A stretch of DNA of 34,787 bases from a virus (IMGVR_UViG_2630968342_000019); one strand, 5' to 3'. Shown: positions 1-27,976, counted from the stretch's first letter. The notes: a model not told the origin generated them from the sequence alone. A program made the numbers and translations.

Positions 1-1164
1 TCACTCATCATCTTCTGTTTCGTACTCCACATCAGAAAGCCTGACCTCAAGTTCTAAGGACGTCGTGAAGCCGCTATTATTCAGAAAGTGAGTCACCTTA
101 GTGATTGTCCAGTCCTGCTCGTCTATGACGCGCTTAAAGCCTGACACTTTAACCGGTGTTTCCGTGTAAATATCTGCCCGACCGGTAGCCAGGCTGATGG
201 AGAACTCCGCCACACCCCGTTGCAGTTTATCCCACTTCGCCTGAGCGGCGCGCATGGCCTGCGCTTTCGTGGCATATACCGTGGTCAGGGCAAAAACGTT
301 GTCAGCCTCACCGGCCATGTATTCACCTTCGCGCGCTTCCGGTACTTTTGGCGCTTTCTTCTGCGTGACCGGTTTCGCTTTCGGGTGCTCCAGTGCGCGC
401 AGGTGTTTTTCTTTCTTTTTGCGTTTCAGTTTTACCTTCTGCTTTTGCGGCTTCGGGTCTTTGGTGTGTAACCACTTTGCCGTTACGCCTGTGTAGGCTC
501 CGCGGTCAGCAATCGAAAAATGATGACGGTCACCGTCGCTGCGGGTGATGGTAATCTGCGGGATTTTTTTACCGCTGGCAGTCACCCCCAGCCCCGCTTT
601 GAGAAACAGCAGTTTTCCCATTTTTACCGACACCTCACCGCCGTTGCGTTCAGCAAGACGGGTCAGGAATTTCGCATCGGACTCCTGCGACTGGTCGATG
701 TGCGGGATTTTAATTCCGGCCAGTGACGGCGCGACACTGGCTTCCAGCCTGTTACGGGAGGCTATTGCCTCAACAATCGCACCGAGCGTGGTGTCATGCC
801 AGGAGCCTTCACGGCGGGAATTGAGCGTCCCGCGAAAATCTGCACTCCGGGCGCGGATGGTGACCACATCCGGCGCGCCCCGGTGTTCAACCTCATCAAC
901 GGTAAATTTCCCTTTGCATACCAGGGCAAAGCCTTTCCAGCCGATATACACCGTCAGGACAGCGCCACGAACCGGCAGCCCGACCTGCCCGTCGGCATCG
1001 TTCAGTTCAATATCAAGCTGGTCAGCCTCAAAGCCCCGGTTATCCGTCAGGGTCATGCTCATCAGACGGTCGCTGATATTGCCGGTAATATCCCTGCTGT
1101 CGAGCATCAGCATGTAATCCGGCGTCAGCGTACTGCCTGCATCAAATGTCAGCGCATCCAGCAT
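1..1164 (-). CDS. D: P2 gpD-like tail protein (late gene D)
   Basis: 387-aa ORF whose translation I recognise as P2 gpD along its full length; same length as P2 D; last gene of the tail operon in P2 order. Confidence 0.92.
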   Translation of the reverse strand: MLDALTFDAGSTLTPDYMLMLDSRDITGNISDRLMSMTLTDNRGFEADQLDIELNDADGQVGLPVRGAVLTVYIGWKGFALVCKGKFTVDEVEHRGAPDVVTIRARSADFRGTLNSRREGSWHDTTLGAIVEAIASRNRLEASVAPSLAGIKIPHIDQSQESDAKFLTRLAERNGGEVSVKMGKLLFLKAGLGVTASGKKIPQITITRSDGDRHHFSIADRGAYTGVTAKWLHTKDPKPQKQKVKLKRKKKEKHLRALEHPKAKPVTQKKAPKVPEAREGEYMAGEADNVFALTTVYATKAQAMRAAQAKWDKLQRGVAEFSISLATGRADIYTETPVKVSGFKRVIDEQDWTITKVTHFLNNSGFTTSLELEVRLSDVEYETEDDE

Positions 1165-1643
1165 TATCCCGCCCCCGTCATACCCGTGAATCTGGTCGCC
1201 ATACTGCCAGCCTTACCGATGAGCGATTCCGCCTGTTTACCGATATCGCCATAAAGCGCGGCCAGTGATTCATCAACGCGGGTGAGCGACAGCGTAAAAT
1301 CAATTTTCCGGGGGGTGCCGTCTGCAAAGAAAATACTCCCTGTTTCACTCACCTTGCTGATGACATACATGCCGTAAATCATGCCAGTGCCATCCAGCAA
1401 CGGCCACGCCCGGCCTTCCTCTGCCATCAGCCTGAGCGTGGTCATCGTCAGCTTCCCGCCGGTCAGTTCGGGATAAAGCACGCCGGCAAGCGTCATGTTT
1501 TCCTCACCCACACCGAGAAACTGAAAGGCATCCCGTTTACCGATACGGGAATTTGACGGCCAGCGATAATCTGATTCGCGCTGCATGGTCTGATGTGGCA
1601 GCGTCTGGCGCATAAAAACAAACATACCTAACGCGAGCATCAT
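1164..1643 (-). CDS. U: P2 gpU-like tail protein
   Basis: 159-aa ORF recognised as P2 gpU (N-terminus MMLALGMFVF...); sits between T and D as in P2; stop overlaps the D start. Confidence 0.92.
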   Translation of the reverse strand: MMLALGMFVFMRQTLPHQTMQRESDYRWPSNSRIGKRDAFQFLGVGEENMTLAGVLYPELTGGKLTMTTLRLMAEEGRAWPLLDGTGMIYGMYVISKVSETGSIFFADGTPRKIDFTLSLTRVDESLAALYGDIGKQAESLIGKAGSMATRFTGMTGAG

Positions 1644-1657
1644 TTTTCGTCACCTCC

Positions 1658-4105
1658 TTAACCGTCATGCATCATGCTGGCACGGGCGCGCGCACGTTTA
1701 TCCCGCTCGTATTTTTCGAGCGCATCCTGTAACTGGCGGTCAAGCTGTGTCCCCGGCGCAGTACCACCCGTCAGGCTGATGTGATATTCGTTTTTACTCT
1801 GGTCCACATAAGAGCGGCCAGCCGGTGCCGTGACCGGCTGATAAGCCTGATAGCCTGCATAAGAGCTGGTCGCCGGAATATAACCACCGGTGCCATACGT
1901 GGCGGCATGAGTTCTGGCGGCGGTCTGGTCAAGTGTGTCTGACTCTTTGTTGATAACACCGAGTTTTTCCAGTACCCAGTCAATACCGCTGCGCAGTTTG
2001 TTGAACGCATTAAGCGGCAGCATCAGCGCGTCAGCCAGTGCCTGCCCGAACATGACGCCCGTGTCACGGCAACGGTTCAGGGTGTCCTGTGTGGCTTTAA
2101 CCGGAGCAATCAGGTTTGTAAACCACTGCCACGCGGCCTGTAACTTTTCGCCCAGCCAGTCAAACACCGGCTTAAGTGGCGTGAACAGCTCCCCCACCGG
2201 CGCAAATGCCGCTTTCAGCCCTTCAACCACACCGCCAAAGAATGCGCTGACAGGCTCCCAGTATTTACGGATAAGCAACGCCCCGGCGACAATGGCAGCC
2301 ACCACGGCCACAACCGGCCAGCTAATCGCACCGATGGCCGTCATAACGGCACTACCAACCGTCGTGAAGATTGCCCCCATTGCGCCTGCTGCCGCGATAA
2401 TGGCATTGATGCCGGTGATAACCGGCCAGGCTACAAGGCCAATGGCACCGATGATGCCAGTCAGCGCCAGTGCACCGCCGGCAATGATGCCGATGGTTGA
2501 CGCCAGTGATTTGTTTTTCTGTATCCAGCCGTCGAGTTTTAACACATACTTTGTGGCCGTCTGCGTGAGCTTACGCAGCGCGCCTTCCTGCTGGTCAAAC
2601 AGGTCAGTCCCCACAGCCTCATAAGCGGACTGAAACTCCTTAAAGTCACCGCCGAGGTTATCCTGCATGATTTTAACCAGCTCTTCCGTTTTACTGTCCG
2701 AGGCTTTCAGCGTGGCGGTCAGCGTATCCAGTTTTCCGCTTGCTGCCGCTGCCAGTAAAACGTTCGCTGATTTCAGGGCTTCCTCACCAAAAATGGTTTT
2801 AAGGTATTCCCCCTTCTGAGACGTTCCCAGCTTGTGTTTATCAAAGCTGGCCTGAATCTCTTTCAGAATGGTGACCAACGGACGCATATTTCCCTTTTTG
2901 TCCGAGGTTTTAACGCCAAGCTCTTTGAGTGCATCCCATGCTTTTCCAGTCGGAGCCTGTAATCGGGTGACAACGGCACTACTACCCGTACCCGCCATTG
3001 ACCCCCTGATGTTATTGTCATGCAGCACACCGGTCATGGCTGCTGCCTGCTCAAGACTTACACCTGCCGTTCTTGCGACCGGACCGAGGTAAGTCAGTGC
3101 ATCACTGAGTCCCTGAAAATCAGCCGCCGACTTATTCATCGTTGCCGACAACACGTCGCCCACATGGCTGACATCATCATTTGACAGTTGAAAGGATGCC
3201 TTAGTCCCCAGCAACAGTTGCGCGTTTTCTTCCATCGACCGCTGATTCGCCAGTGCCATATTCAGCGTGACCGGCGTTGCCGCCTGAATAGCCGCAGCAT
3301 CTCCACCCGCTTTCGCAATGATAATCTGCGCACCGGCCGCATCATCCGCCGAGGCGGCGGTATTATCGCCGAGCTGGCGCGCCTGCTTGCGGAGCGCGGC
3401 CATTTCGGCGGAGTCTTTTGCCACTCCGAGCACGGCCTGCAATTCTGAGTTTTTCTGCGCAAACTCATAACCGGGCATCAGCAACTTAACTCCGGCCATC
3501 GTTCCCGCCGCCGCAATCCCCACACCGGCAGCGCCCACCGAGGCCATATTTCCGGCCAGTTCCTTTCCGGCCTGATAACGCTGTTTGACTGCGTTAAGTT
3601 TTGCCTGTTGTGCACTGACACGTGCCAGCGCGTCACGCTGACGGTTAAGCTGTGCGGTGGTTTCACTGATACGGTTTTTCAGCCCTCGTTCATCATGCGC
3701 CAGATTACGGGTATTAATACCCGCCTGACCCAATTCCTGACGCTGGCGCTGTACCGACAATCTCAGGCTGTTATATTTCGCCTGTAACTCAGACGCATTT
3801 TTACGCGCGGCTTCCATTGCCTTTGCCTGTGCATTTGTCGGTCGTTCAGTATTTTTAAACTGGACAGCCAGAGCTGCGGCTTCCTGTCTGGCTTTTTTCA
3901 GTTCCTGACCAGTCACGGCGAGCTGTGCACTGGTCTTGCGAAATCCCTCAATACGGGATGCGTGACCGTTCAGCTCGCGCAGTGATTTTTGTGTGTCCCG
4001 GATATCCCCCGACAGCGATTTGCTCGCTGTGCGGATGGATTTAAACGGGCGGGATGCCAGGTCAACAGCCCTGAGCAATACCTGTAATTTTACATTGTTA
4101 CTCAT
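1658..4105 (-). CDS. T: Tail tape measure protein (P2 gpT-like)
   Basis: 815-aa ORF, same length as P2 T; coiled-coil N-terminal half, Gly/Ala-rich hydrophobic central segment and conserved C-terminus typical of tape measure proteins; position between E/E' and U. Confidence 0.92.
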   Translation of the reverse strand: MSNNVKLQVLLRAVDLASRPFKSIRTASKSLSGDIRDTQKSLRELNGHASRIEGFRKTSAQLAVTGQELKKARQEAAALAVQFKNTERPTNAQAKAMEAARKNASELQAKYNSLRLSVQRQRQELGQAGINTRNLAHDERGLKNRISETTAQLNRQRDALARVSAQQAKLNAVKQRYQAGKELAGNMASVGAAGVGIAAAGTMAGVKLLMPGYEFAQKNSELQAVLGVAKDSAEMAALRKQARQLGDNTAASADDAAGAQIIIAKAGGDAAAIQAATPVTLNMALANQRSMEENAQLLLGTKASFQLSNDDVSHVGDVLSATMNKSAADFQGLSDALTYLGPVARTAGVSLEQAAAMTGVLHDNNIRGSMAGTGSSAVVTRLQAPTGKAWDALKELGVKTSDKKGNMRPLVTILKEIQASFDKHKLGTSQKGEYLKTIFGEEALKSANVLLAAAASGKLDTLTATLKASDSKTEELVKIMQDNLGGDFKEFQSAYEAVGTDLFDQQEGALRKLTQTATKYVLKLDGWIQKNKSLASTIGIIAGGALALTGIIGAIGLVAWPVITGINAIIAAAGAMGAIFTTVGSAVMTAIGAISWPVVAVVAAIVAGALLIRKYWEPVSAFFGGVVEGLKAAFAPVGELFTPLKPVFDWLGEKLQAAWQWFTNLIAPVKATQDTLNRCRDTGVMFGQALADALMLPLNAFNKLRSGIDWVLEKLGVINKESDTLDQTAARTHAATYGTGGYIPATSSYAGYQAYQPVTAPAGRSYVDQSKNEYHISLTGGTAPGTQLDRQLQDALEKYERDKRARARASMMHDG

Positions 4106-4525
4106 TCGTGTTTCCGCTTCGCCGGAGCGCCTTTTCGCGCCATGTGATGAGTTCGGTCAGGCTCATGGGATACAGTTCTGATGGCGGCCAGTGAAATATC
4201 ACTGCCACATCCGCCATCAGGTCATCGACCGACAGATTTTTCGGAAACGTCACTGCACCGAGTTCGGCGACAAAAAACCGACCACCTTACCGGCCAGCGC
4301 CACAAGGTCAGGCAGTTCCAGTGCGGCGACTTCCTGCTCGGTCAGCATCGGTGCCGTCATGCGCGGCAGCACTTTAATCAGTGCATCGACTTCGGAGTTT
4401 GCGACCGCAGCCAGACTGACACCGCGCAGCGTCCCGGCATTGGGTTTCATCAGCGTGACCTGTTCGATAACCTGCTCACCACGCTTGACCGGATTGTCCA
4501 GGGTAATCACATTTTCTTTGTTCAT
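4098..4525 (-). CDS. E+E': gpE+E' tail assembly chaperone made by programmed -1 frameshift
   Basis: After the mRNA heptamer T_TTT_TTG (plus coordinates 4271..4277) the -1 frame stays open and reads VAELGAVTFPKNLSVDDLMADVAVIFHWPPSELYPMSLTELITWREKALRRSGNTNE, ending at a TAA (4098..4100) that overlaps the T start. I translated this by hand from the sequence. Confidence 0.8.
4250..4525 (-). CDS. E: Tail assembly chaperone gpE (zero-frame product)
   Basis: 91-aa ORF recognised as P2 gpE; ends just after the slippery heptamer. Confidence 0.9.
   Translation of the reverse strand: MNKENVITLDNPVKRGEQVIEQVTLMKPNAGTLRGVSLAAVANSEVDALIKVLPRMTAPMLTEQEVAALELPDLVALAGKVVGFLSPNSVQ
4271..4277 (-). promoter_or_regulatory. 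Slippery heptamer for the E/E' -1 ribosomal frameshift
   Basis: Canonical X_XXY_YYZ heptamer T_TTT_TTG on the mRNA (plus strand reads caaaaaa), located near the 3' end of E, as in P2 and the lambda G/GT paradigm. Confidence 0.8.
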
Positions 4526-4581
4526 GGTTTTCTCACTTCTGAATCGGGGTTAACCGGTCAGCCAAGCTGACCGGATGAAAA

Positions 4582-5100
4582 TCACAGGCCGATATTGCGG
4601 CGGTGTTGCTCCAGCCGGTCGACGCCGTTCACCTTCTCAATCATGTTGATGGTGTCGATTTCGACCAGCTCCTTACCGTCCATCGTCAGCCGGAAATAGG
4701 TGCAGACCACGGAGATTTTCGACTCGGTGTCTTCTCCCTGTTTACCCTCTCCGGTGTCGATTTCTTTCTGACGTCCACGCATGACCACTTCGACGGCCAC
4801 CGTTTCGCCGGTATCGTCACGCTGGTAAGAGCCTGCAAAACGAATCGGTACGGCATCCACACCGGTTGCGGCGTAAAGCTCCCAGATAACCGAATCCGGG
4901 AAGCCACCGAGCGACCACTCCATTGACAGCGCATCGTCATCAAGGCCGAGGTCTACCGGTGCGCTGCCGTTCATCCCCGCACCGCGATAGTTTTCGAGCT
5001 TACGGGTCAGTTTTGGCAGCGTGACGGACTTTGCAACGCCCTGATAGCTGTAGCCGTTCAGAAAGACGTTCATTAACTTGAGTTTGCGCGGCATTGCCAT
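4582..5100 (-). CDS. FII: Tail tube protein (P2 gpFII-like)
   Basis: 172-aa ORF recognised as P2 FII; immediately downstream of FI. Confidence 0.92.
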   Translation of the reverse strand: MAMPRKLKLMNVFLNGYSYQGVAKSVTLPKLTRKLENYRGAGMNGSAPVDLGLDDDALSMEWSLGGFPDSVIWELYAATGVDAVPIRFAGSYQRDDTGETVAVEVVMRGRQKEIDTGEGKQGEDTESKISVVCTYFRLTMDGKELVEIDTINMIEKVNGVDRLEQHRRNIGL

Positions 5101-5112
5101 CGGTCAGGCTCC

Positions 5113-6303
5113 TTAATTGCTGTTAACCGAGGTGACCAGATTTGCCAGGTATTTATCGGTAATACGCTGGCGCAGGGTCAGGTTTTCAAGAGGAGGCACC
5201 GGTGTATAGTCGTAGTCGATATACAGTTTTCCGGCCTTGAGGGTTTCCGCATCGTTGGATTCTTCGCTGAACCAGCAGGTCGCATCCACGATATAGCCGT
5301 TTGTTTTCAGCTCACGGAATTTGGCATTGATGCCGTCAACGATGTCGCGAATCAGCGTTGCGGTGATGGGCTTGTCCACCGCCCACATGTGCGCCTCAGC
5401 CATCGTGTCGGCCAGCACCTGCGCGGTGCGGGTGTAGTTTTCAAAGAGGAACAGCGGGTCATCAGAGCAGGTACGGTTACCCCAGAATCGGAAACCGTCG
5501 CGGCGAATCAGCGTAGTGACGCCTGACTCGTTAAGCAGGTCAGCATCGGTGCCGGACTCCTGCAAATCCCAGAATACAGATGCGCTGATGCCGGTAACAC
5601 CGTTTACCCCGACGTTGGACAGCGTTTTATGCCAGCCCTGCTCCTGGTCGATTTTGGCACGCAGACCCAGCGCACGGGCGGTGGCATACGCGGTGGCGGT
5701 GGTACTGGTGACCGTATCCCATGCGAGGAAATCCGGCCAGATGACCATCAGCTCACGCTGGCTGAAATTCTGGCGGTAGGCTTTCACCTCGGAAATGGTT
5801 TTACAGCCCCATGCGCTGATATACCCGAAAGCGCGCAGCTTCTGACAGACTGATGCCAGTGCAACCGCCACCTCTTTGGTGTCCAGTCCCGGCACACCGA
5901 GAATACGCGGTTTAACACCGGTAACCGACTCCGCCGCCAGCAGGGCTTTCAGTCCGGTGTACTGACCGTTTTCGTCGGTGGTGCCGATGATATTGGAAAC
6001 GGTCTGCGCAAGTTTCGTTTCTTCGTCATCGCCGTTGCCGTCTTCCACGCGCACGACAACGGTGACCGGTTTTGACTGGTCAGCGATGGCCTGCAACGAC
6101 GCCGCCAGCGTGCCTTTTTTACCGGCCTTTGCAATTGCGCTCTGCACGTTGGTAATCAGCACCGGTTTATTGAGGGGGAAGGTTTCCGCATCCGCATCGC
6201 TGGCCGTGCAGACCATGCCGACAATGGCAGTGGATACGGTGGAAATGACGCGGGTGCCGTCGTTAATCTCCAGCACCTGCACGCCGTGATGATAGTCACT
6301 CAT
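5113..6303 (-). CDS. FI: Contractile tail sheath protein (P2 gpFI-like)
   Basis: 396-aa ORF recognised as P2 FI (N-terminus MSDYHHGVQVLEINDGTRVI...); same length as P2 FI. Confidence 0.93.
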   Translation of the reverse strand: MSDYHHGVQVLEINDGTRVISTVSTAIVGMVCTASDADAETFPLNKPVLITNVQSAIAKAGKKGTLAASLQAIADQSKPVTVVVRVEDGNGDDEETKLAQTVSNIIGTTDENGQYTGLKALLAAESVTGVKPRILGVPGLDTKEVAVALASVCQKLRAFGYISAWGCKTISEVKAYRQNFSQRELMVIWPDFLAWDTVTSTTATAYATARALGLRAKIDQEQGWHKTLSNVGVNGVTGISASVFWDLQESGTDADLLNESGVTTLIRRDGFRFWGNRTCSDDPLFLFENYTRTAQVLADTMAEAHMWAVDKPITATLIRDIVDGINAKFRELKTNGYIVDATCWFSEESNDAETLKAGKLYIDYDYTPVPPLENLTLRQRITDKYLANLVTSVNSN

Positions 6304-6400
6304 CCGTTTAACTCCGTGGTTAATGGGTGCAACTATTTTCTGTTGTGCAGAGCATGAGACGCTATTTGACCTGGCTGGTCAGTGGATGAAACAACAGATA

Positions 6401-6426
6401 AAGAAAAGGCGGGCAATTCGCCCGCC
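6401..6426 (-). terminator. Rho-independent terminator (minus strand) downstream of the Z/fun-position moron
   Basis: Perfect 7-bp GC stem GGCGGGC / GCCCGCC (6408..6414 and 6420..6426) with a 5-nt loop; on the minus strand the hairpin is followed by TTTTCTT (plus 6401..6407). Confidence 0.6.
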
Positions 6427-6632
6427 TGTCCTGATTTGAACTCACTCATTTTCCGACTGACAATTTACATAGCCCAAAAGTTATCAAATCTGACAGTCTG
6501 CTTTGAACAAGAAGCGGACATTTGCCTGTCAGGGTATATGCCGCTCTGCGGTTATTATCCAGAATCAAAAATTCATCTGAGTTGGATTACATATAAAACA
6601 TAGTTACCCCATGAATAACCATTAGCAGATTA

Positions 6633-7226
6633 TCAATTATGTAAATCTTTTGTTTTATGTTCTTTGGCGTGTTGTGACAACAAATGGCTATAGCGTTTAA
6701 GCAAAATATTAGAAAGATTAAGCTCATTCATGAAGTGTTCTTCTAATAAGTAACCATCAATATCAACTTTAATATCATTACCACTTTTCATCTTCTGTAA
6801 CGTAGATTTTACACGCTCCAGCAGGATGCTTTGCTCATGGTAATAGTCCATAAGAAGAGTAACATCCTCTTTATCAAGCTTACTTAATTCGCTGAAGTAG
6901 GATTTAAACACTTTATCAGTCTGGTTTAATGCAATCTGTAAGCGAGGCCCCCCTAATGATTTGACATTAATGGCAAAAGGCTCGCCAACAAAATGCTCCG
7001 AATTTTCGTCAAAGCCAATATATCTCGTTTTATCAAGAAAAGTGAGAGCGCGATGGTTATTAGCGATTTCATATGCAAACATTGTTCTGATACTGTCCCT
7101 CTCAGCCTCCATGCTTATATCATCACGATGATTTGTATAAAATATATTTCCAACAAAGAGAACCATAGCAAGAATCACTGAACTTGCCTCCCAGTTAATA
7201 TTTTTTAATCGTCGCTTAGTAAACAT
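6633..7226 (-). CDS. Hypothetical membrane-anchored protein (moron at the P2 Z/fun hotspot)
   Basis: 197-aa ORF in a markedly AT-rich block between tail-fibre assembly gene G and sheath gene FI; N-terminal basic stretch then a hydrophobic helix (EASSVILAMVLFVGNIFYT); AAGGTG Shine-Dalgarno 4 nt before the ATG; own terminator downstream; no motif I can assign. Confidence 0.6.
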   Translation of the reverse strand: MFTKRRLKNINWEASSVILAMVLFVGNIFYTNHRDDISMEAERDSIRTMFAYEIANNHRALTFLDKTRYIGFDENSEHFVGEPFAINVKSLGGPRLQIALNQTDKVFKSYFSELSKLDKEDVTLLMDYYHEQSILLERVKSTLQKMKSGNDIKVDIDGYLLEEHFMNELNLSNILLKRYSHLLSQHAKEHKTKDLHN

Positions 7227-7447
7227 ACCGCACCTTAATTATCAAAAATATTCCTTCAGTGTTATCTGGTTAGCCTAAACCAAGTCATTAAAGTCTGCAG
7301 GATATCATATACATAAAATGTATTGATTAGAATTTGCACTAATAAAATAATGCTTTACTAAAATCTACTCCAGACACAGAGCGGCCTGTCAGATTAGGCT
7401 TTACTCTGTGCCATAGATACGTTTGCTCACTCCAGAGATCATACAAC

Positions 7448-7975
7448 TTATTGCGGCATTTCCGGCCATTCAGGATTTGCAGGATCCACACGACTGACCA
7501 GAACGCTGTAGCGTTCCCATGCTTCCAGTCGGCTACGCTCCTCATCTGTTGCCATGTTCAGTCTGACAGCGCGATCCAGCGGCAAAATCACGGATTCAGC
7601 ATCTGCTAGAAGTCTGGCTTTCCGGTTTTCTGCCTGCTGCTGCAATTCCTCTGCCGTATAAATGCGTTTAATCACTTTGCCGTCCTTAAACATCCAGTTC
7701 CCTGAAATGTCCGCCCGTCGGTTAGCAGTAATATCCGCCACTTCAACAACACTTAATCCATCCGGTCTGATAGCTGTCACATCCTTTTCCACATAGCGGA
7801 TGATATTATCTTTGTCGTACGCTATTTTTAGCGTGTCATCAGCAAAATACTTTTGTTCTTCGTACCAGTTCTTACCATCTTCTGAAAAAAACCAGACAAC
7901 ATCAAAGTCTTTTGTCAATTGATATTGTTCAACCGTTTTTGGATTACCTGCCGTTATATTTATCAAATGCTGCAT
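7448..7975 (-). CDS. G: Tail fibre assembly protein (P2 gpG-like)
   Basis: 175-aa ORF, same length as P2 G; immediately downstream of tail-fibre gene H. Confidence 0.88.
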
Positions 7976-7978
7976 AAA

Positions 7979-10108
7979 TTATACCTGCGCCACGTTATAC
8001 CAAGTCCCGTTAATGTATTTCTGCACCGGTCTGTAATATACGCCACCAATGTTATCGGCAGAGTTTGAGCCGGTATCCTGAACAATAATGCCGGAATATA
8101 CACACCCGGATGGTGCCTGATGTGTCCATGTCATGCCATTGTTCGCAGGTTTGTATGTGGCAGCACCACCAAGCCGGATATCCCGGACATAGCGGGAATC
8201 AAAGTTACCGTAATCCGAGGGATTAACACGCCCCGTAATATTTATGGTTTTATTACTTTGAATGCTACCGGAGACAAAGCGCATAACATGGACGTTATTA
8301 GCATAAACATCCAGATTACCGTCGCCATTTTGTTTAAAGCCCGTGTCATTATCACCCAAAACAATCGAGTTACCGCCAAGAGCACTGGATGTTCCGATAC
8401 CCAGTGCACCATTCAATTGACCTCCAGATAATGACAACGCCCCAACATCAGCAGCAGTTGGTTTAATGTGCGAACTGTAAATTATATATACAGTTCCATC
8501 TGTCAGGCCTGTTGGTTTATTCGCTGTATAAGTTGGTGATGTATGAATCGTTACGCTGGCGTTACTGGTATAATCCCACTGAATATTAACACCCGTGGCA
8601 TAATTACCTATTTCAACATAAACATCATAGGTATCACCGGATGTATTCACCCATGCAAAATTAGTAAATCCAACCGATGTCCGTCGCCATAACGCACCAG
8701 TAAGACCTTTTGGATTTCCATTTCCCGCACGAAGAACAAGTTCAGATATACCAGCCTGCATAGGGGAGTTAACATTATATCCAGCACCACCAATCAGACT
8801 TATGTAAACCACGGAACTGGCCTGTGGCATGGTTACAGTTGCCAGCCTGAACCATCCTGTACCACCACTAAAAGACATGGTTGTTGAATTTGTTGCACCA
8901 ATATTGCGCAGGAATAATCTTTTATCAGGAATATCCGCACCGTTCTGATCTTTCTGAAGACGTTTCTCAGCATTGTCATAGGCAGACTTCACCGCTTTTG
9001 GTGTTGCGGCGAGCGTTTCAGACGTGCTGTTAGTCGCACTACTGAGCTGAACAAGGCCTTTTCGCGCCGTGGTGGCATCCTGCGCAGTATATTTCCCGTT
9101 AGCAAGGTCATACGCGACCTTTACCGCCTTTGGTGTTGCCGCAAGCGTTTCTGAATCGCTGTTGGTGGCGCTACTGAGCTGGACAAGACCTTTTCGCGCC
9201 GTGGTGGCATCCTGTGCGGTATATTTCCCGTTAGCGAGGTCATATGCTGCCTTTACCGCCTTTGGCGTTGCCGCAAGCGTTTCAGAATCGCTGTTGGTGG
9301 CGCTACTGAGCTGAGCAAGCCCTTTTCGCGCTGTGGTGGCGTCCTGTGCAGTGTATTTCCCGTTAGCAAGGTCATATGCTGTCTTTACTGCTTTTGGCGT
9401 TGCGGCGAGCGTTTCAGACGTGCTGTTAGTCGCACTACTGAGCTGAACAAGGCCTTTTCGCGCCGTGGTGGCATCCTGCGCAGTATATTTCCCGTTAGCA
9501 AGGTCATATGCGGCCTTTACCGCTTTCGGCGTTGCGGCCAGTGTTTCAGACGTGCTGTTGGTCGCACTGCTTAACTGAGTAAAACCTTTTGCGGTCAGCG
9601 AGGCGTCCGGGTGACGTCGTGACTGTTCGTGCTCTGCAATTTTGTCATCAACGTAATCCTGCGTCGCCATCACCGTTGTGGTGTCAATGGTCAGCGCCAC
9701 TGAGGCCACACTGCTGACGATGATGACCATGCGACAGGTCTGCGAACGCCCTGAGCCTTCGGCAAGAGCTGGCTTATAACTTTCGGCCATGTTCGCCACG
9801 GCAATTAATGTTCCCGCATCATCGTACAGGCCAAGCTCACGCATCCAGAAACCGCCCACCTCCGGCGGAATAACCAGCTCTGCGATAATATAATTACTGT
9901 TTCGTTTGTCCTGACTGATTTTGTTCAGCGCATGTCGCCAGACTTCGTGGATAAGCCCGGTCTGTCCGGCATCCGGGACAGGCAATTTACCACCGCCATC
10001 CCCGACGGCCATCGTGGTAATGTTGACCTTCCGCCCTCCCGGTGCGGTTGCCGCTGCCAGCTTTGCTGCACCGGCAGTGGTGATAACGGTTTTGAATTTT
10101 GTGCTCAT
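7979..10108 (-). CDS. H: Tail fibre protein (P2 gpH-like) with five internal ~44-aa repeats
   Basis: 709-aa ORF; N-terminal ~160 aa recognised as the conserved P2 H baseplate-attachment region; central five-fold repeat LSSATNS(T/D)SETLAATPKAVK.AYDLANGKYTAQDATTARKGL typical of phage tail-fibre repeats; divergent C-terminal receptor-binding part. Confidence 0.9.
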   Translation of the reverse strand: MSTKFKTVITTAGAAKLAAATAPGGRKVNITTMAVGDGGGKLPVPDAGQTGLIHEVWRHALNKISQDKRNSNYIIAELVIPPEVGGFWMRELGLYDDAGTLIAVANMAESYKPALAEGSGRSQTCRMVIIVSSVASVALTIDTTTVMATQDYVDDKIAEHEQSRRHPDASLTAKGFTQLSSATNSTSETLAATPKAVKAAYDLANGKYTAQDATTARKGLVQLSSATNSTSETLAATPKAVKTAYDLANGKYTAQDATTARKGLAQLSSATNSDSETLAATPKAVKAAYDLANGKYTAQDATTARKGLVQLSSATNSDSETLAATPKAVKVAYDLANGKYTAQDATTARKGLVQLSSATNSTSETLAATPKAVKSAYDNAEKRLQKDQNGADIPDKRLFLRNIGATNSTTMSFSGGTGWFRLATVTMPQASSVVYISLIGGAGYNVNSPMQAGISELVLRAGNGNPKGLTGALWRRTSVGFTNFAWVNTSGDTYDVYVEIGNYATGVNIQWDYTSNASVTIHTSPTYTANKPTGLTDGTVYIIYSSHIKPTAADVGALSLSGGQLNGALGIGTSSALGGNSIVLGDNDTGFKQNGDGNLDVYANNVHVMRFVSGSIQSNKTINITGRVNPSDYGNFDSRYVRDIRLGGAATYKPANNGMTWTHQAPSGCVYSGIIVQDTGSNSADNIGGVYYRPVQKYINGTWYNVAQV
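8960..9640 (-). repeat. Tandem ~132-bp coding repeats (about 5 copies) inside tail-fibre gene H
   Basis: Nucleotide motif ttcgcgc(c/t)gtggtggc recurs at 9061, 9193, 9325 and 9457 (period 132 bp); the protein repeat is visible in the H translation. Confidence 0.8.
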
Positions 10109-10118
10109 TATTCCTCAC

Positions 10119-10649
10119 TTATCCGGGGTAAACCGTAATTACATCGCCGTCGTAAGCCACACCACCGGCGAACAGGTAGCCGGGAATGTCCCGGGTAATG
10201 TTCAGGCCAATAAGGTGGCGGCTTGCAGGTTTGGCATCAGCAATCAGCCGTTCCATTTCCTGATACATTGCCTCTGTGATGCCACTTTCCAGTACACCAA
10301 TATCAAGCCGGAAGGTGCCGGGCGGGTCACTGTTTTCCCACCACTCCGTCACGTTGATGAGATAGCCGAGCGGCTCCACCACACGCCGGATTGCACCTAT
10401 AGTGCCTTTATGACAGTGGATGAAATACGCATCGCGGATAACGGCGCGTTTTGTCGCTTCCGGCCACTTTTCATCCCACCTGTCGACCGAAAACGCCCAC
10501 GCCAGCCACGGCAGCAGATTTGCCGGACAGGTGTCCGGGTTCCACAGCTCACGAATACTGACCGGCGTTTTTTCAATTTCCGCACAGGCTTTTGCGGCGG
10601 CGACCTCAAGCGGTGATGAGCCGGTCGGCAGCAGTCGCGAATCACTCAT
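10119..10649 (-). CDS. I: Baseplate assembly protein (P2 gpI-like)
   Basis: 176-aa ORF, same length as P2 I, recognised as gpI. Confidence 0.92.
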   Translation of the reverse strand: MSDSRLLPTGSSPLEVAAAKACAEIEKTPVSIRELWNPDTCPANLLPWLAWAFSVDRWDEKWPEATKRAVIRDAYFIHCHKGTIGAIRRVVEPLGYLINVTEWWENSDPPGTFRLDIGVLESGITEAMYQEMERLIADAKPASRHLIGLNITRDIPGYLFAGGVAYDGDVITVYPG

Positions 10650-11212
10650 CCGAGCCTCCGGTCACGACGCGGTATTCGGTACAGAAAGACGCCTGCGTAC
10701 TGTTGAGCACGATGTCGGCCAGTGGTGCAGCCAGTTCGACACGCTGCACACCTTCCACATGCAAAGCGGCATAAATGGCAGACAGACGGATGTCGCGCCC
10801 CAGCCGGTGCTGTGCCGTGATATACGCTTCCAGTTTTTTCACGGCGGCAGCGCGAATGGGTTCGCTTTCGGGACCAGGGTAAAGGTAAAGCGTGGCGTTT
10901 ATCTGGTATTCAACGATGGCGGCAGACTGCACGGTCACGCGGTCGGCCACCGGCCTGACGTCCTCGCCATTAAGGGCGTTACGCACCACCGCCAGCAGGT
11001 CTTCGGATGCGACACCGTTATTTTCACGTGACAGCACAGAGATGGTGACGCAGGCCGGAGACGGACTGGTTACAGAAATATCCGCGACACGCCCGTCGGC
11101 ACTGCGACCATGATACTGATAGGCCCCCACCGACCCGGCGACGCTTAAACCTTCAAACGCCTGCTGAATACGCAGACGATAATCCGTGTCAGATTCCATC
11201 ACTGCCGGTGTC
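10642..11212 (-). pseudogene. J: Baseplate protein J, C-terminal fragment ('J), separated from its N-terminus by an IS insertion
   Basis: Translation ...TQTPAVMESDTDYRLRIQQAFEGL... is the C-terminal ~190 aa of P2 gpJ. The annotated 201-aa ORF begins inside the IS terminal repeat; genuine J sequence resumes at the target-site duplication. Confidence 0.85.
11207..11212. repeat. Target-site duplication, left copy (GGTGTC)
   Basis: The 6 bp immediately left of the IS terminus TGCGTATT are identical to the 6 bp immediately right of the other terminus (13810..13815). Removing the IS plus one copy restores an open J frame encoding ...STLPPTPAVMESD... Confidence 0.65.
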
Positions 11213-11297
11213 TGCGTATTACCGTGAAGGAGATCGGTGAGTAACATCGATGGAGATCGGTTCGTGTCACTTTCACAGAACCGTTTTTAAATTACCT

Positions 11298-12049
11298 TCA
11301 CTGATCTCCTTCGGTCAACGGAGATTGTATTTTCCGCATTGATTCTCCTTTAAGTTCGATCTTGATACTGCCATGAACCAGTCGATCTAGGATGGCATCC
11401 GCATGTGTGGAGTCTCCGATCATTTTGTACCAGTTTTCCACCGGCAACTGGCTCACTACGATGATTGAGCCTCGTTGGTACATCAGATCCACTATTTCCA
11501 GCAGGTCGCTACGCTGTTCTGATGAGAGAGGTTCCAGCCCCCAGTCATCCAGAAGCAGCAGATCGCTATTATTCAGCCAGGTCAAAAGTTTGCTGTATCT
11601 TCCATCAGCATGCCCCTGATAGCACTGTTCCATCAGCGCTTTAAGGCGATAATAGTAGACCTTGTATCCCTGTCGGCAGGCATTATGACCAAGTGCACAT
11701 GCCAGGAACGTTTTACCGCTGCCGGTGGCCCCGGTCAGTAAAATATTTTGTTTCAGGGTTAACCAGTTTCCCTGACTGAGTGAACGGATGAGGGCCCTGT
11801 CCAGCCCTCTATTGTTACGATAATCCAGCTTTGATAACTCAGCATTAAGTCTGAACCGTGCATGTTTGATCAGACGCTCTGCCTTCCTGTTTTCACGGCA
11901 GGTTAGTTATTCTGCTGTCAGTAATGACAGGCGTTCTTCGAAGCCCCAGCTCCTGGTATGTGCCCGGCTGAGCAAGTTGCTTTTTAAGCGCATCACGGAA
12001 GCCGGTGAGTTTAAGTGCGGTCAGTTGTTCGTAAAGATGATTCATCATT
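11298..12049 (-). pseudogene. istB: istB (IS21-family helper ATPase), apparently disrupted
   Basis: The Walker A region LLTGATGSGKTFLA and the C-terminal 111 aa are IstB-like. Upstream, the frame starting at the ATG (12049; MMNHLYEQLTALKLTGFRDALKKQLAQPGTYQELG...) is out of register with the Walker A frame (apparent +1 base near ctggggcttcgaa), and that frame has an in-frame TAA after ...FEERLSLLTAE. Confidence 0.55.
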
Positions 12050-12059
12050 GGATCCCGTA

Positions 12060-13616
12060 TCAGTGGTAATACTCACTGCCGCGTACGTTTTCGTGTTCCA
12101 TCGTGGATAACAGATCTGGTTTTGGATCCTGAACAGGTTGTTTATCCAGACCTTTTTCCAGGATCGATTTAATACCTGACAGACGCCATACCTTTGTTTT
12201 CAGAGCTCTTGCACATGCTGCATTAAGTCTGGCTTTACTGTATTTTTTATGAAGGTTCAGGAGTCCAAGGCAGAAGCGATAGCTTTGTTCCGGATGTGGA
12301 CGAGAGTTCAGTATATGAAGCACATAACTATGAGTTTCACTGCCTATGTGCCCCGCCCATTCCAGAAGACGCTCTGGCGTCCAGGTGGCATGCTGTCGAT
12401 GAGCTTCAGGCATGTGCGACCCTTCGGGTTCTGTGACCGTACCATAAGTATATGCAAGGTATAAGTCGCTTGCGCGGGGCACAGCAACTCTGCCCCTGAT
12501 TGAAGAGCTTCCATTCTCCGGAGACCATGCTTTTTTCAAGTGGGGCCTAAACGGACCCGGAAACGAGTAGTAATGTTTGTCGATTTCCACGTGGTAATCG
12601 GCATGAACTCTGACTTTCTTCACCAGGGTGTAACTGTAACTGGCTTCAGGAAGAGGCTTCAGTGCGGGTTTATCAAGCTGGATGAAGAGTTCTGCACGTG
12701 AATAACCCAACTTCTGCATTATTTTGTTATTCAGTCTTTCCAGCAACTCCCGAATGCGCTGATTAAGCGATGCAAGGCTGTAGAAGATCTCATGCCTGAT
12801 TCGGGCCATGATCCAGCGTTCAACAACCTGAACGCCAACTTCAGCTTTGGCTTTATCTTTCGGTTTACGTGGCCGCGCAGGCAAAACTGCGACATTATAA
12901 TGCTCAAGCATCTGCTGGTAGGTAGGGTTAACGTCAGGATCATACTTACATGCCCTGGATGTGGCGCTTTTCAGATTGTCCGGAACAACAAGTTCAGGAA
13001 CGCCACCCAACCACTGGAAGCAGCGAACATGACTCATCACCCAGTCTTCAAGCTGCTGAGACCAGGTGGCCTCTGCCCATGTGTAACTTGATGCCCCGAG
13101 AACAGCTACGATGACCTGAGCAGTTCTTATTTCTCCGGTCTCAGGGTCGGTAACGCCAACGGTAGGTCCACAGTAATCAACGAAAAGTTTTTCGCCAGCT
13201 TTATGTACCAGACGCATTGATGGTGAAGTGGTTTTGAGCCATTCACGGTACATCCGGCAGTAATGGTTATAGCTGTAAAAACCGCCTGGATTACGCTCAC
13301 AGTATTCTTCCCAGAGTAGCTGCAGCGTCACGCATTTATTACGCAGTTCCCGGTGTACTGTAGCCCAGTCAGGCAGAGAGTGCTTCTTCATCTTAACCTG
13401 GGTCTGAAGGAACGCATGTTTTAGTTTTGTATCATCCCATCCTGTAGGTAAGGGCCACTGCTTTATGCCAAGTTGAGCCGCCCGATTAGCATATCTGGAT
13501 ACAACGGAAGGGGAGATTGCAAGACTACGACCAATTTGTCGATGGCTGAGTCCAACACCGTATTTAAGCCTAAGAATTTCTTTAAGTTTTCTCATAGAAA
13601 TTGGAACTGTTGGCAT
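12060..13616 (-). CDS. istA: IS21-family transposase IstA
   Basis: 518-aa ORF with an N-terminal helix-turn-helix region, a DDE-type integrase core and the conserved IstA C-terminus (...HYYSFP...WTPERLLEWAGHIG...GIKSILEKGLD...); ATG at 13616. Confidence 0.85.
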   Translation of the reverse strand: MPTVPISMRKLKEILRLKYGVGLSHRQIGRSLAISPSVVSRYANRAAQLGIKQWPLPTGWDDTKLKHAFLQTQVKMKKHSLPDWATVHRELRNKCVTLQLLWEEYCERNPGGFYSYNHYCRMYREWLKTTSPSMRLVHKAGEKLFVDYCGPTVGVTDPETGEIRTAQVIVAVLGASSYTWAEATWSQQLEDWVMSHVRCFQWLGGVPELVVPDNLKSATSRACKYDPDVNPTYQQMLEHYNVAVLPARPRKPKDKAKAEVGVQVVERWIMARIRHEIFYSLASLNQRIRELLERLNNKIMQKLGYSRAELFIQLDKPALKPLPEASYSYTLVKKVRVHADYHVEIDKHYYSFPGPFRPHLKKAWSPENGSSSIRGRVAVPRASDLYLAYTYGTVTEPEGSHMPEAHRQHATWTPERLLEWAGHIGSETHSYVLHILNSRPHPEQSYRFCLGLLNLHKKYSKARLNAACARALKTKVWRLSGIKSILEKGLDKQPVQDPKPDLLSTMEHENVRGSEYYH

Positions 13617-13809
13617 AGGTATCCTTTACCGGAATGGCAAAAGATACAGATCAACACACCTGTGAAGTTCCAATAACATTGATGGAGATCACTGAATAAC
13701 AAAATGAGTCAAAAGTGATCTCCATCGATGTTATTCAGCGATCTGTTCAAATGTTATTACCCGATCTCGATGGAAGTTATTGAGTGATCTCCTTTCATGA
13801 AAATACGCA

Positions 13810-13815
13810 GGTGTC
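13810..13815. repeat. Target-site duplication, right copy (GGTGTC)
   Basis: Identical to 11207..11212 and immediately abutting the IS terminus. Confidence 0.65.
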
Positions 13816-14153
13816 GGCGGGAGGGTCGAATCATCTGCCGGGGTGATAATCAGGCGCGTGGTGTTGTAATTGGCACCAATCACATCAAGGTCATTACCGG
13901 CGGCACAGGCCAGCATTACCGCCCGTGCGGCCTCATTCACACGCTGACGCCAGATAAGCTCACGATAAGCATTTTCCTCCAGCAGTTTGACGAGAGGCTC
14001 GGATTCCAGCGTCAGGGTACGGGCGACCGCCTCCTGCTGGTCTTCCGGGTAAAGGGAAATCAGTGTCGCCTTGCGTTCGGCAAGAATGGTTTCAAAGTCC
14101 AGCTCCTCGACCACATCCGGTGCAGGTAGCTGGTTCAGGTCGATAATCGGCAT
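13810..14153 (-). pseudogene. J: Baseplate protein J, N-terminal fragment (J'), truncated by the IS insertion
   Basis: Translation MPIIDLNQLPAPDVVEELDFETILAERKATLISLYPEDQQEAVARTLTLESEPLVKLLEENAYRELIWRQRVNEAARAVMLACAAGNDLDVIGANYNTTRLIITPADDSTLPPTPA is the gpJ N-terminus; the frame then runs 24 codons into the IS end before a stop at 13731. Confidence 0.85.
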
Positions 14154-21577: not shown

Positions 21578-23350
21578 ATGACCATCACCACAGACACCAC
21601 TCTTTTGCACGACCCGCGTCGTCAGGCGGCGCTGCTGTACTGGCAGGGGTTTTCCGTGCCGCAGATTGCCGCCATGTTGCAGATGAAACGCCCGACGGTG
21701 CAGAGCTGGAAACAGCGCGACGGCTGGGACAGCGTTGCCCCCATCAGCCGTGTCGAAATGAGTCTGGAAGCGCGGCTGACCCAGCTCATTATCAAACCGC
21801 AGAAAACCGGCGGTGACTTCAAGGAAATTGACCTGCTCGGACGCCAGATTGAACGACTGGCACGGGTAAACCGCTACAGCCAGACCGGCAACGAGGCAGA
21901 CCTTAATCCGAACGTCGCTAACCGCAACAAAGGCGGGCGTCGCAAACCGAAAAAGAATTTTTTCAGCGACGAGGCTATCGAAAAGCTGGAGCAGATTTTC
22001 TTTGAGCAGTCTTTCGAATATCAGTTGCACTGGTATCGCGCCGGGCTTGAGCACCGCATCCGCGATATCCTGAAATCCCGCCAGATTGGCGCGACGTTTT
22101 ATTTTTCCCGCGAGGCGCTGCTGCGCGCCCTGAAAACAGGTCATAACCAGATTTTTCTGTCGGCCAGTAAAACGCAGGCGTATGTGTTCCGCGAATACAT
22201 CATCGCCTTTGCCCGTCTGGTTGACGTTGACCTTACCGGTGACCCGATTGTCCTGGGCAATAACGGCGCAAAACTGATTTTTCTCGGCACCAACTCCAAC
22301 ACCGCACAAAGTCATAACGGCGACCTGTACGTCGACGAGATTTTCTGGATCCCGAATTTTCAGGTACTGCGTAAGGTGGCATCAGGTATGGCCTCACAGA
22401 GTCACCTGCGCTCGACCTATTTCTCCACCCCGTCCACGCTGGCGCACGACGCCTACCCGTTCTGGTCGGGTGAACTGTTTAACCGGGGACGCGCCAGCGC
22501 CGCCGAACGCGTGGAAATCGACGTCAGTCATAACGCCCTTGCCGGTGGGCTTCTCTGTGCGGACGGCCAGTGGCGGCAGATTGTCACCATTGAGGACGCC
22601 CTGAAAGGCGGCTGCACGCTGTTCGACATTGAACAGCTCAAACGTGAAAACAGCGCCGACGATTTTAAAAACCTGTTCATGTGTGAATTTGTTGACGACA
22701 AGGCGTCGGTGTTCCCGTTCGAGGAGCTGCAACGCTGCATGGTCGACACGCTGGAAGAATGGGAAGACTATGCGCCGTTTGCCGCCAATCCGTTCGGCTC
22801 ACGTCCGGTATGGATTGGTTACGACCCGTCACACCGTGGCGACAGCGCCGGATGCGTGGTACTGGCACCGCCGGTGGTGGCCGGTGGCAAATTCAGAATA
22901 CTTGAGCGTCACCAGTGGAAAGGCATGGACTTTGCCACTCAGGCGGAATCCATCCGCAAACTCACCGAAAAATACAACGTCGAATACATCGGTATTGATG
23001 CCACCGGCCTCGGTGTCGGCGTGTTCCAGCTCGTGCGCTCGTTCTATCCTGCCGCGCGCGATATCCGCTACACGCCGGAAATGAAAACCGCAATGGTGCT
23101 CAAGGCCAAAGACGTTATCCGCCGTGGCTGTCTGGAATATGACGTCAGCGCCACCGATATCACCAGCTCGTTTATGGCTATCCGCAAGACCATGACCAGC
23201 AGCGGACGCAGCGCCACCTATGAGGCCAGCCGTAGCGAGGAAGCCAGCCACGCCGACCTCGCCTGGGCGACCATGCACGCCCTGTTAAATGAGCCACTCA
23301 CCGCCGGTATCAGCACCCCGCTGACATCCACCATTCTGGAGTTTTACTGA
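21578..23350 (+). CDS. P: Terminase large (ATPase) subunit (P2 gpP-like)
   Basis: 590-aa product from MTITTDTTLLHD..., recognised as P2 P; GGCGAGG Shine-Dalgarno just upstream; divergent from O as in P2. Confidence 0.92.
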   Translation: MTITTDTTLLHDPRRQAALLYWQGFSVPQIAAMLQMKRPTVQSWKQRDGWDSVAPISRVEMSLEARLTQLIIKPQKTGGDFKEIDLLGRQIERLARVNRYSQTGNEADLNPNVANRNKGGRRKPKKNFFSDEAIEKLEQIFFEQSFEYQLHWYRAGLEHRIRDILKSRQIGATFYFSREALLRALKTGHNQIFLSASKTQAYVFREYIIAFARLVDVDLTGDPIVLGNNGAKLIFLGTNSNTAQSHNGDLYVDEIFWIPNFQVLRKVASGMASQSHLRSTYFSTPSTLAHDAYPFWSGELFNRGRASAAERVEIDVSHNALAGGLLCADGQWRQIVTIEDALKGGCTLFDIEQLKRENSADDFKNLFMCEFVDDKASVFPFEELQRCMVDTLEEWEDYAPFAANPFGSRPVWIGYDPSHRGDSAGCVVLAPPVVAGGKFRILERHQWKGMDFATQAESIRKLTEKYNVEYIGIDATGLGVGVFQLVRSFYPAARDIRYTPEMKTAMVLKAKDVIRRGCLEYDVSATDITSSFMAIRKTMTSSGRSATYEASRSEEASHADLAWATMHALLNEPLTAGISTPLTSTILEFY

Positions 23351-26774: not shown

Positions 26775-26779
26775 TTATA

Positions 26780-26803
26780 CCCCCCTGTTTTTTGACAGGG
26801 GGG
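26780..26803. terminator. GC-rich hairpin between convergent genes (probable bidirectional terminator)
   Basis: Perfect 9-bp stem CCCCCCTGT / ACAGGGGGG with loop TTTTTG, placed between the stop of the GHKL gene (26774) and the stop of the methyltransferase (26816); flanking U-tracts are weak. Confidence 0.5.
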
Positions 26804-26815
26804 ATGACATAAGTT

Positions 26816-27865: not shown

Positions 27866-27933
27866 GATAAACCTCCTTCTAATGCTGTGGGGATTGTAGC
27901 ATTGTTCTTTCTCATCATCGATGTTTACTTGAT

Positions 27934-27960
27934 GCTTGATTTGTGAATACAAAATCAAGC
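27934..27960. promoter_or_regulatory. 9-bp inverted repeat in the A-methyltransferase intergenic region (candidate operator or attenuator)
   Basis: GCTTGATTT (27934..27942) and AAATCAAGC (27952..27960) with a 9-bp spacer, between the A stop and the methyltransferase ribosome-binding site; no U-tract follows. Confidence 0.35.
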
Positions 27961-27976
27961 ATGTCAATCATTATTG

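Follow-up and report, generated by a model that had tools for sequence, protein, structure and literature searches.

An AT-rich gene at the Z/fun position of a P2-like prophage

The viral sequence IMGVR_UViG_2630968342_000019, 34,787 nucleotides long (the whole of which we call the window, with positions counted from its first letter), carries the late genes of a P2-like phage together with a small AT-rich gene that is foreign to them. The large genes of 1..10650 all lie on the minus strand and follow the order of the P2 late genes: D, U, T, E/E', FII, FI, then the additional gene (hereafter the cargo gene), G, H and I. The cargo gene was called as an open reading frame (ORF) of 197 amino acids with an ATG start (6633..7226, minus strand), and sits between G (7448..7975) and FI (5113..6303), an interval that in P2 holds fun(Z) on the opposite strand. 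The product is identical to WP_000494502.1, and the locus is 100% identical in Escherichia coli G6/7, where it is labelled as a hypothetical protein.

GC content falls to 0.33-0.38 across 6450..7500, compared with 0.52-0.60 on the FI side (300-nt segments), and is 0.352 for the ORF against 0.449 for G, 0.567 for FI and 0.511 for the window. The ATG is preceded, at a distance of 4 nt, by a Shine-Dalgarno sequence, AAGGTG (7231..7236, minus strand). A preliminary description of the locus, made from the sequence alone, had proposed an AT-rich single-gene cargo at the Z/fun site with a ribosome-binding site of its own, and the ORF, the drop in GC, the G and FI flanks, the match to P2 and the AAGGTG motif agree with it on both counts.

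Limits of the cargo and the backbone that surrounds it

Alignment to P2-like phages with unrelated cargo placed the acquired DNA at ~6524..7371, a segment of 848 bp with a GC content of 0.346. On the FI side, similarity starts at the FI start codon and ends past ~6523, so that 6304..~6523 is common to six P2-like phages including P2, Wphi, P22H4, 10W and the Yersinia phage vB_YpM_115; on the G side, ~7372..7447 is common to four, including P2, Wphi and P22H4. The unit had earlier been drawn as 6401..7447, which proved too wide: the cargo is smaller, and both ends of that interval are conserved P2 backbone.

The FI-side backbone holds an intrinsic terminator on the minus strand (6398..6427), which directly precedes the P_F late promoter region that serves the FI operon (6304..6397, minus strand; aligned to the annotated P2 activator-binding site and transcription start, with approximate positions). 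Its hairpin, read on the minus strand from 6427 to 6407, has 9 pairs, 7 of them G-C, and is followed by TTTTCTTTATC; when 6400..6530 was folded (z = -2.9), this hairpin was the strongest stem. It is kept in the six aligned phages, P2 among them, whose fun(Z) points the other way. Because 6304..~6523 is common to phages with unrelated cargo, the terminator is part of the hotspot backbone. The clean rho-independent terminator of the preliminary description is thus present as a hairpin with a T-tract but is not the gene's own, and the insulation of the gene by a terminator that it brought along has to be given up, as the structure is conserved whatever cargo is present. The conservation of 6398-6427 extends to P2 although fun(Z) is transcribed away from it, and the P2 record annotates another V-operon terminator beside G. 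The conserved terminator may serve to shield P_F from transcription leaving whichever cargo occupies the site.

Both backbone segments next to the cargo correspond to inverted repeats of the P2 Z-region, as judged by alignment and GenBank annotation. The 'right inverted repeat' lies at 6429..6519 and the 'left inverted repeat' at 7372..7447 (~7372..7485 according to the records), downstream of G and running into its 3' end. Left and right repeats are annotated in the P2-EC "proviral Z-region" records AJ512677, AJ512680, AJ512682, AJ512683 and AJ512685, of which AJ512683 and AJ512685 have repeats that map to ~7372..7485 (left) and 6429..6519 (right) in the window. The series of Z-region records AJ512676-85 reportedly originates from Nilsson et al. 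2004. Within the two repeats, 6487..6505 pairs with 7377..7395 as a 19-nt imperfect inverted repeat with arms that are 84% complementary, and a core, CTGTCAGATT, was found twice in the window against 0.06 occurrences expected, both copies lying in the 19-nt arms. The inverted repeats may be recombination sites or mere homology anchors. The left backbone segment, 7372..7447, also holds a hairpin (CACAGAG..22 nt..CTCTGTG; fold z-score -1.85).

The non-coding DNA between the stop codon and the terminator (6427..6632) is therefore composite: 6429..6519 is the conserved right inverted repeat, and only 6524..6632, a cargo-specific 3' untranslated stretch on the minus strand, arrived with the gene, moving with it in E. 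coli while similarity to the other phages is lost past ~6523. This spacer had been suspected of holding a regulatory element or a small RNA. We rejected such an element as a feature of the cargo, since half of the spacer is a known repeat, an Rfam search of 6427..6632 (E up to 1) returned chance-level matches to snoR43 and mir-26 alone (E 0.44 and 0.98), and the folding score of -2.9 includes the terminator hairpin. With 88-99% identity, the relatives are too close for a covariation test.

Turnover of cargo at the site

Unrelated genes occupy the same site in other P2-like phages: a 300-aa orf44 in Wphi, a 251-aa protein encoded on the other strand in P22H4, a phosphatase and a hypothetical protein in 10W, efflux pump and regulator genes in vB_YpM_115, and fun(Z) in P2. 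Among relatives, cargo was found in either orientation. A 1144-bp interval spanning the site matched 67 phage records, 13 of which carry all of it, the remainder having the backbone ends alone. Some part of the interval was matched by 1018 of 5426 complete E. coli genomes, mostly through the FI-side backbone, and the whole interval by 201. Searched alone, the cargo was present in 203 E. coli genomes, always on the chromosome, and was full length in 201 of the 203; an 841-bp cargo query was 95-100% identical over its full length in 201 genomes. Some 3.7% of complete E. coli genomes (201-203 of 5426) thus carry the gene, about one-fifth of those that match the hotspot flank. The expectation that cargo turns over at this locus across P2-like phages, and that the gene is variable rather than conserved with the tail genes (13/67 phage records; 201/1018 matching E. 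coli genomes), was confirmed.

The closest comparison is with P2 fun(Z) itself, which blocks growth of T5 and confers sensitivity to fluorodeoxyuridine (FUdR). The two genes share their locus, the left and right inverted repeats, the backbone terminator and the P_F promoter, and both are AT-rich, non-essential, variable cargo at a position known for phage-exclusion genes. They differ in orientation and in their products, the one here being small and, by prediction, membrane-anchored. P2 Fun(Z) (NP_046777, 528 aa) shows no sequence similarity to it, the best BLASTP alignment having an E value of 3.3 over 19 residues, and homology to Fun(Z) or to Wphi orf44 was rejected on sequence comparison.

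Described as a 'second defence-enriched locus', the Z/fun locus has yielded three validated defence systems in addition to fun (Vassallo et al. 2022, PMC9519451), and the hotspot had been reported both there and in the iLund4u preprint (2024, bioRxiv 10.1101/2024.10.15.618418). Neither the hotspot nor its inverted repeats and defence content are new; it is the gene family that is uncharacterised, with no relatives detected outside itself.

A family found on many kinds of mobile element

Scans of the 197-aa protein against Pfam and PADLOC (E up to 10) gave no match, and NCBIfam gave a single chance-level hit (E 0.03), far below the curated cut-off. The sole family match was phrog_3829, over the full length (E 2e-137), a family whose function is given as unknown in PHROGs. 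When 26 family members were used as queries, PADLOC-DB 2.0 returned four unrelated single hits (E 0.004-0.013), and no exclusion, defence or immunity family was matched in Pfam, NCBIfam or PHROGs; a sequence-profile search of the PDB was uninformative. These scans bear out the earlier impression that the soluble part of the protein has no assignable motif, and the defence-system models of PADLOC, one of the checks proposed with it, gave no match. Mention of WP_000494502 was not found in the literature searched, and the protein is absent from the supplements of Vassallo et al. 2022. Many NCBI records name it "lysogenic conversion protein"; as the P2-EC records apply similar wording to whichever ORF lies in the Z-region, the name is most likely positional and not functional.

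Searching 1.84 billion representative proteins with a profile recovered 28 proteins, all of the same family. The named members come from Escherichia, Salmonella, Pantoea, Kosakonia, Pluralibacter, Enterobacter, Dickeya, Pectobacterium and Proteus, which are Enterobacterales only, and the gene has a GC content of 31-36% in every host examined. Judged by its sequence, this is a real gene under constraint: the ratio of non-synonymous to synonymous substitution rates (dN/dS) against the Salmonella homologue was 0.15, with synonymous sites near saturation (dS 1.66).

Within E. coli, the two allele groups (the window against phage AC1, locus L015) differ by 4 synonymous and 11 non-synonymous changes, a dN/dS of 0.66 from too few changes to interpret. 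Several of the AC1-allele changes lie in the unstructured C-terminal tail, where residues 188-192 read AKEHK vs LKKPE. The annotated starts also differ among copies, giving 181 aa in AC1 and SIDE7 and 161 aa in an Enterobacter plasmid copy (L015 1830-2423; L017 1249-1794; L013 7001-7486). The full 197-aa frame, including the transmembrane helix described below, is open in AC1 and SIDE7 (ATG) and in the Enterobacter plasmid (TTG), and so the annotated versions cut the membrane anchor short.

Outside the Z/fun site, family members were found in a range of settings. In Salmonella, one lies at the end of a lambdoid prophage, after the tail-fibre genes, and is followed 446 bp downstream by a type II pair of methyltransferase and restriction enzyme; another is carried beside an IS110 insertion sequence on an element with TraG, TraU and TraC genes. 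In P4-like satellites, namely those of Pantoea, two Kosakonia and one IMG/VR contig, the gene comes directly after that for the primase. A Dickeya island with ArdC and IS110 carries it ~3 kb from a SIR2-HerA system, and an Enterobacter IncFII plasmid has it at full length with a TTG start. On a P2-like phage contig of Proteus type (locus L050, 4172-6585), the homologue lies downstream of the portal gene, at the second of the P2 hotspots, with a 593-aa P-loop protein as its neighbour. A decayed chromosomal copy of this Proteus-phage arrangement in Proteus mirabilis ATCC 29906 (locus L021, 8046-10591) adjoins putAbiC-domain and HD-domain proteins. The Proteus-type homologues are 30-32% identical, and because they sit at the portal-proximal hotspot the family makes use of both P2 hotspots.

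No neighbouring gene recurred across the contexts examined. The pattern is what one would expect of an accessory cassette that is sufficient in itself and comes to rest in the cargo and defence sites of mobile elements. The gene is not one for virion structure or lysis, a possibility that would have refuted the preliminary description: its relatives lie on P4-like satellites, at a lambdoid prophage end, on elements resembling integrative and conjugative elements (ICE-like elements) and on a plasmid.

A predicted membrane anchor and periplasmic helical bundle

The protein has one hydrophobic segment, residues 13-31, and no second, in keeping with the single N-terminal transmembrane helix already recognized. 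In nearly all of the 26 members, the N-terminal flank of this segment is rich in Lys and Arg and almost without acidic residues, and the 15 residues that follow the helix are neutral or acidic. As these charges follow the positive-inside rule, the predicted topology is N-in, C-out, with the soluble part facing the periplasm. In three distant members the C-terminal end carries a CxxxxC pair, as would suit an oxidising compartment.

An AlphaFold run on 18 close sequences gave a predicted local distance difference test (pLDDT) of 57 and was discarded; adding distant members raised this to 83. The resulting model, from a 26-sequence alignment that includes members at 19-39% identity, had a pLDDT of 83.4 and a predicted template modelling score (pTM) of 0.72. 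In it, a helix of residues 12-66 runs unbroken from the membrane into the first helix of a bundle, followed by a loop (67-91) and helices at 92-100, 105-116, 119-148 and 151-178. The protein is thereby predicted to be a bitopic inner-membrane protein, with a transmembrane helix at 13-31 and then a four-helix bundle of ~150 residues reaching to ~178. Foldseek searches of the PDB and BFVD returned nothing below E 0.07, and the fold matched was a generic helical bundle; structure prediction and fold search, as suggested beforehand, hence yielded a confident model of a helix bundle and no informative fold relative. Among the closest systems are the periplasmic four-helix-bundle ligand-binding domains of chemoreceptors and sensor kinases (Tar/Tsr, PcaY and PilJ). 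To belong with the 4HB_MCP/TarH periplasmic sensor domains, a protein would need homology, seen as a hidden Markov model (HMM) match, together with a second transmembrane helix and a cytoplasmic signalling module, a combination that the cargo protein lacks.

Conservation across the family is highest in the transmembrane segment, where mean pairwise identity reaches 0.41; for the soluble domain, helices and loop have values of 0.26-0.34. The transmembrane region includes the conserved polar residues W12, E13, S16 and N27. Next in conservation is a membrane-proximal motif, IRTxxAYEIxxN, in which R47 and N57 are invariant and A51, E53 and I54 nearly so. Since a plain anchor would not be so conserved, the transmembrane helix probably makes a specific contact within the membrane.

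The same features could be read as those of a single-gene abortive-infection effector, whose transmembrane helix would oligomerise on a trigger from infection and depolarise or permeabilise the inner membrane, so that the cell dies before phage release. The helix is the most conserved part of the protein, its polar residues are odd for a simple anchor, the gene is found in defence-hotspot contexts, and transmembrane effectors are common among defence systems (Rousset et al. 2022). We nevertheless consider this improbable: there is one transmembrane helix alone and no match to a PADLOC transmembrane effector model, no sensor partner recurs across the contexts, and a domain that is in the periplasm, as predicted, could not directly sense phage components in the cytoplasm.

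Transcription of the cargo gene

The cargo-specific 5' non-coding region (7227..7371, minus strand) has a GC content of 0.297. Its sole sigma-70-like match on the minus strand is ATAACA-16-GATAAT (7265..7238), with 9 of 12 consensus positions, and promoter-like sites were no more frequent than expected, 2 being found compared with 3.8 in shuffled sequences. The -10 hexamer of this candidate ends 1 nt before the Shine-Dalgarno sequence, so that its transcript would be nearly leaderless. A string at the Shine-Dalgarno sequence, TTTTTGATAATTAAGG, is common to the Enterobacter plasmid copy, which is 67% identical. A conserved upstream promoter was rejected, as TTTTTGATAATTAAGG is shared with that copy alone and the other upstream regions do not align.

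A terminator scan found no terminator-like site between G and the ORF, and found no minus-strand terminator between the stop codon and 6427..6407 other than that of the backbone. Since the cargo gene points the same way as H and G and nothing like a terminator separates it from G, late read-through into it is likely, up to the backbone terminator. A moron in the strict sense of Hendrix and Juhala is said to be an independent transcription unit inserted between phage genes. The cargo shares with morons a differing base composition (0.346 compared with 0.449 in G and 0.567 in FI) and lacks an acquired terminator of its own.

Late read-through would also suit an accessory gene of the lytic cycle, expressed with the tail operon and acting, for example, in lysis timing or in guarding the lysing cell from re-adsorption, and the predicted N-in, C-out helical layout resembles that of i-spanins. 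We regard such a role as very improbable. Of the E. coli genomes with a match to the hotspot flank, only ~20% have the gene; its relatives are spread over satellites, plasmids, ICE-like elements and chromosomal remnants that lack a P2 late operon; and it is intact although an insertion sequence disrupts the prophage. An i-spanin in particular was rejected, as the gene is not part of any lysis cassette and is also carried by elements that are not phages.

A possible role in superinfection exclusion

Together, the evidence fits a non-essential but selectively maintained, single-protein function exerted from the inner membrane toward the periplasm, and housed at sites where mobile elements store genes against their competitors. 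We tentatively favour an envelope-level superinfection-exclusion factor that would block incoming DNA at the inner membrane, a reading that we hold to be quite possible while giving it somewhat less than even chances. A lysogen would make the 197-aa protein, with its short positive N-terminus in the cytoplasm and its conserved transmembrane helix running into a bundle that faces the periplasm. The helix and the IRTxxAYEIxxN motif might then engage an inner-membrane component or an ejected phage protein, and the incoming phage genome, or DNA of another mobile element, would be stopped from crossing the inner membrane. Read-through from the V-W-J-I-H-G late operon would transcribe the gene in lytic growth as well, as far as the backbone terminator (6407..6427).

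Exclusion at genome entry is, given the architecture and the context, the most economical mechanism, and a soluble domain predicted to be periplasmic favours exclusion at the envelope over abortive infection in the cytoplasm. What speaks for either of these is the hotspot position, together with the defence genes that adjoin family members elsewhere. Among membrane-anchored superinfection-exclusion proteins of prophages, T4 Sp and Imm, P22 SieA, HK97 gp15 and lactococcal Sie2009 are small, phage-carried, single-gene products, borne as non-essential cargo and anchored in the cytoplasmic membrane with their bulk outside the cytoplasm, as is predicted here, and by its predicted topology the cargo protein belongs among small inner-membrane-anchored phage proteins. 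It differs from such superinfection-exclusion proteins (Imm, Sp, SieA/SieB, gp15 and Sie2009) in that it matched no exclusion family in Pfam or PHROGs, and from the classical ones, as they are generally described, in that phrog_3829 is also found on satellites, ICE-like elements and plasmids.

Several points weigh against this proposal. Charge bias is the sole basis of the predicted topology, and the defence-gene neighbours are circumstantial and come from few loci. A lysogenic promoter belonging to the cargo gene is at most a candidate, and H-NS is a frequent silencer of foreign, AT-rich genes in E. coli. Published lysogens bear on the question too. E. coli C lysogens of four P2-like phages have been tested against lambda, T4, P1, 186cIts, CLB_P2, LF82_P8, AL505_P2 and T7 (Rousset et al. 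2022), and two of the four phages carry the gene: AC1 (95% amino acid identity) and SIDE7 (OU784746, 99.5%). AC1 alone was reported to protect, and a TIR system from the other hotspot reproduced its protection, in a panel without T5-like phages (Rousset et al. 2022). That lysogens with the gene showed no protection attributable to it is weak and indirect evidence against an exclusion function.

The AC1 and SIDE7 lysogens, without phage resistance attributable to the gene, are what one would expect of a lysogenic-conversion factor unrelated to genome entry, acting in envelope physiology (the display of lipopolysaccharide or receptors, or stress tolerance) or as an orphan immunity protein against a bacteriocin that acts on the membrane or in the periplasm, a contact-dependent inhibition (CDI) toxin or a type VI secretion system (T6SS) toxin, to the benefit of host fitness. 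A bitopic periplasmic architecture would fit this, plasmids and ICE-like elements, on which host-benefit cargo is common, carry the gene, and P2 hotspots are not confined to defence: that between gpA and gpQ also holds partition systems and a cytolethal distending toxin (Rousset et al. 2022), and vB_YpM_115 has its efflux pump and regulator at the Z/fun position. However, several independent contexts adjoin bona fide anti-phage systems, no cognate toxin gene was adjacent in the contexts examined, and the protein matched no immunity family in Pfam or NCBIfam. On the Enterobacter plasmid, IS91 lies between the gene and a CdiA-like locus, an arrangement unlike that of a toxin-immunity pair. A conversion factor of this kind seems to us rather unlikely, though deserving of more credit than abortive infection.

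Extending the exclusion reading to the whole family is a more tentative step. phrog_3829 could represent an unrecognised Enterobacterales family of one-protein barriers to phages and other mobile elements, in which the conserved transmembrane helix and the membrane-proximal motif target a specific inner-membrane component used for DNA entry. Its AT-rich gene would pass, as a cassette on its own, between both P2 hotspots, P4-like satellites, lambdoid prophages, ICE-like elements and plasmids; we rate this as conceivable, at slightly better than one chance in three. The occupation of both P2 hotspots and of P4-like satellites by one cassette family is of interest in itself, as is the presence in ~3.7% of complete E. 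coli genomes of a gene with no functional annotation beyond a seemingly positional name. Should the protein prove to be an exclusion factor, the defence repertoire of E. coli would grow by a compact family that acts at the envelope through a single protein, and a direct route would open to an inner-membrane component that some phages need for genome entry. If it is not anti-phage, it would illustrate that hotspot position alone does not establish defence.

Other features of the prophage

The baseplate gene J is split by an IS21-family element (10642-14153), leaving a C-terminal J fragment (10642-11247), an istB fragment (11298-11633), istA (12060-13616) and an N-terminal J fragment (13731-14153). 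The prophage is probably defective, with the cargo gene intact. At its other P2 hotspot (24816-27967), between the portal gene Q (23350-24384) and the replication gene A (27977-30256), lies a pair resembling a restriction-modification system, composed of a 652-aa HATPase_c_3 protein that matches PADLOC REase_II (E 2e-91) and a C5 cytosine methyltransferase. In the tail-fibre gene H (7979-10108), about five tandem units of ~44 amino acids are seen in the translation at ~9000-9560 (…ATNSTSETLAATPKAVKAAYDLANGKYTAQDATTARKGLVQLSS…).

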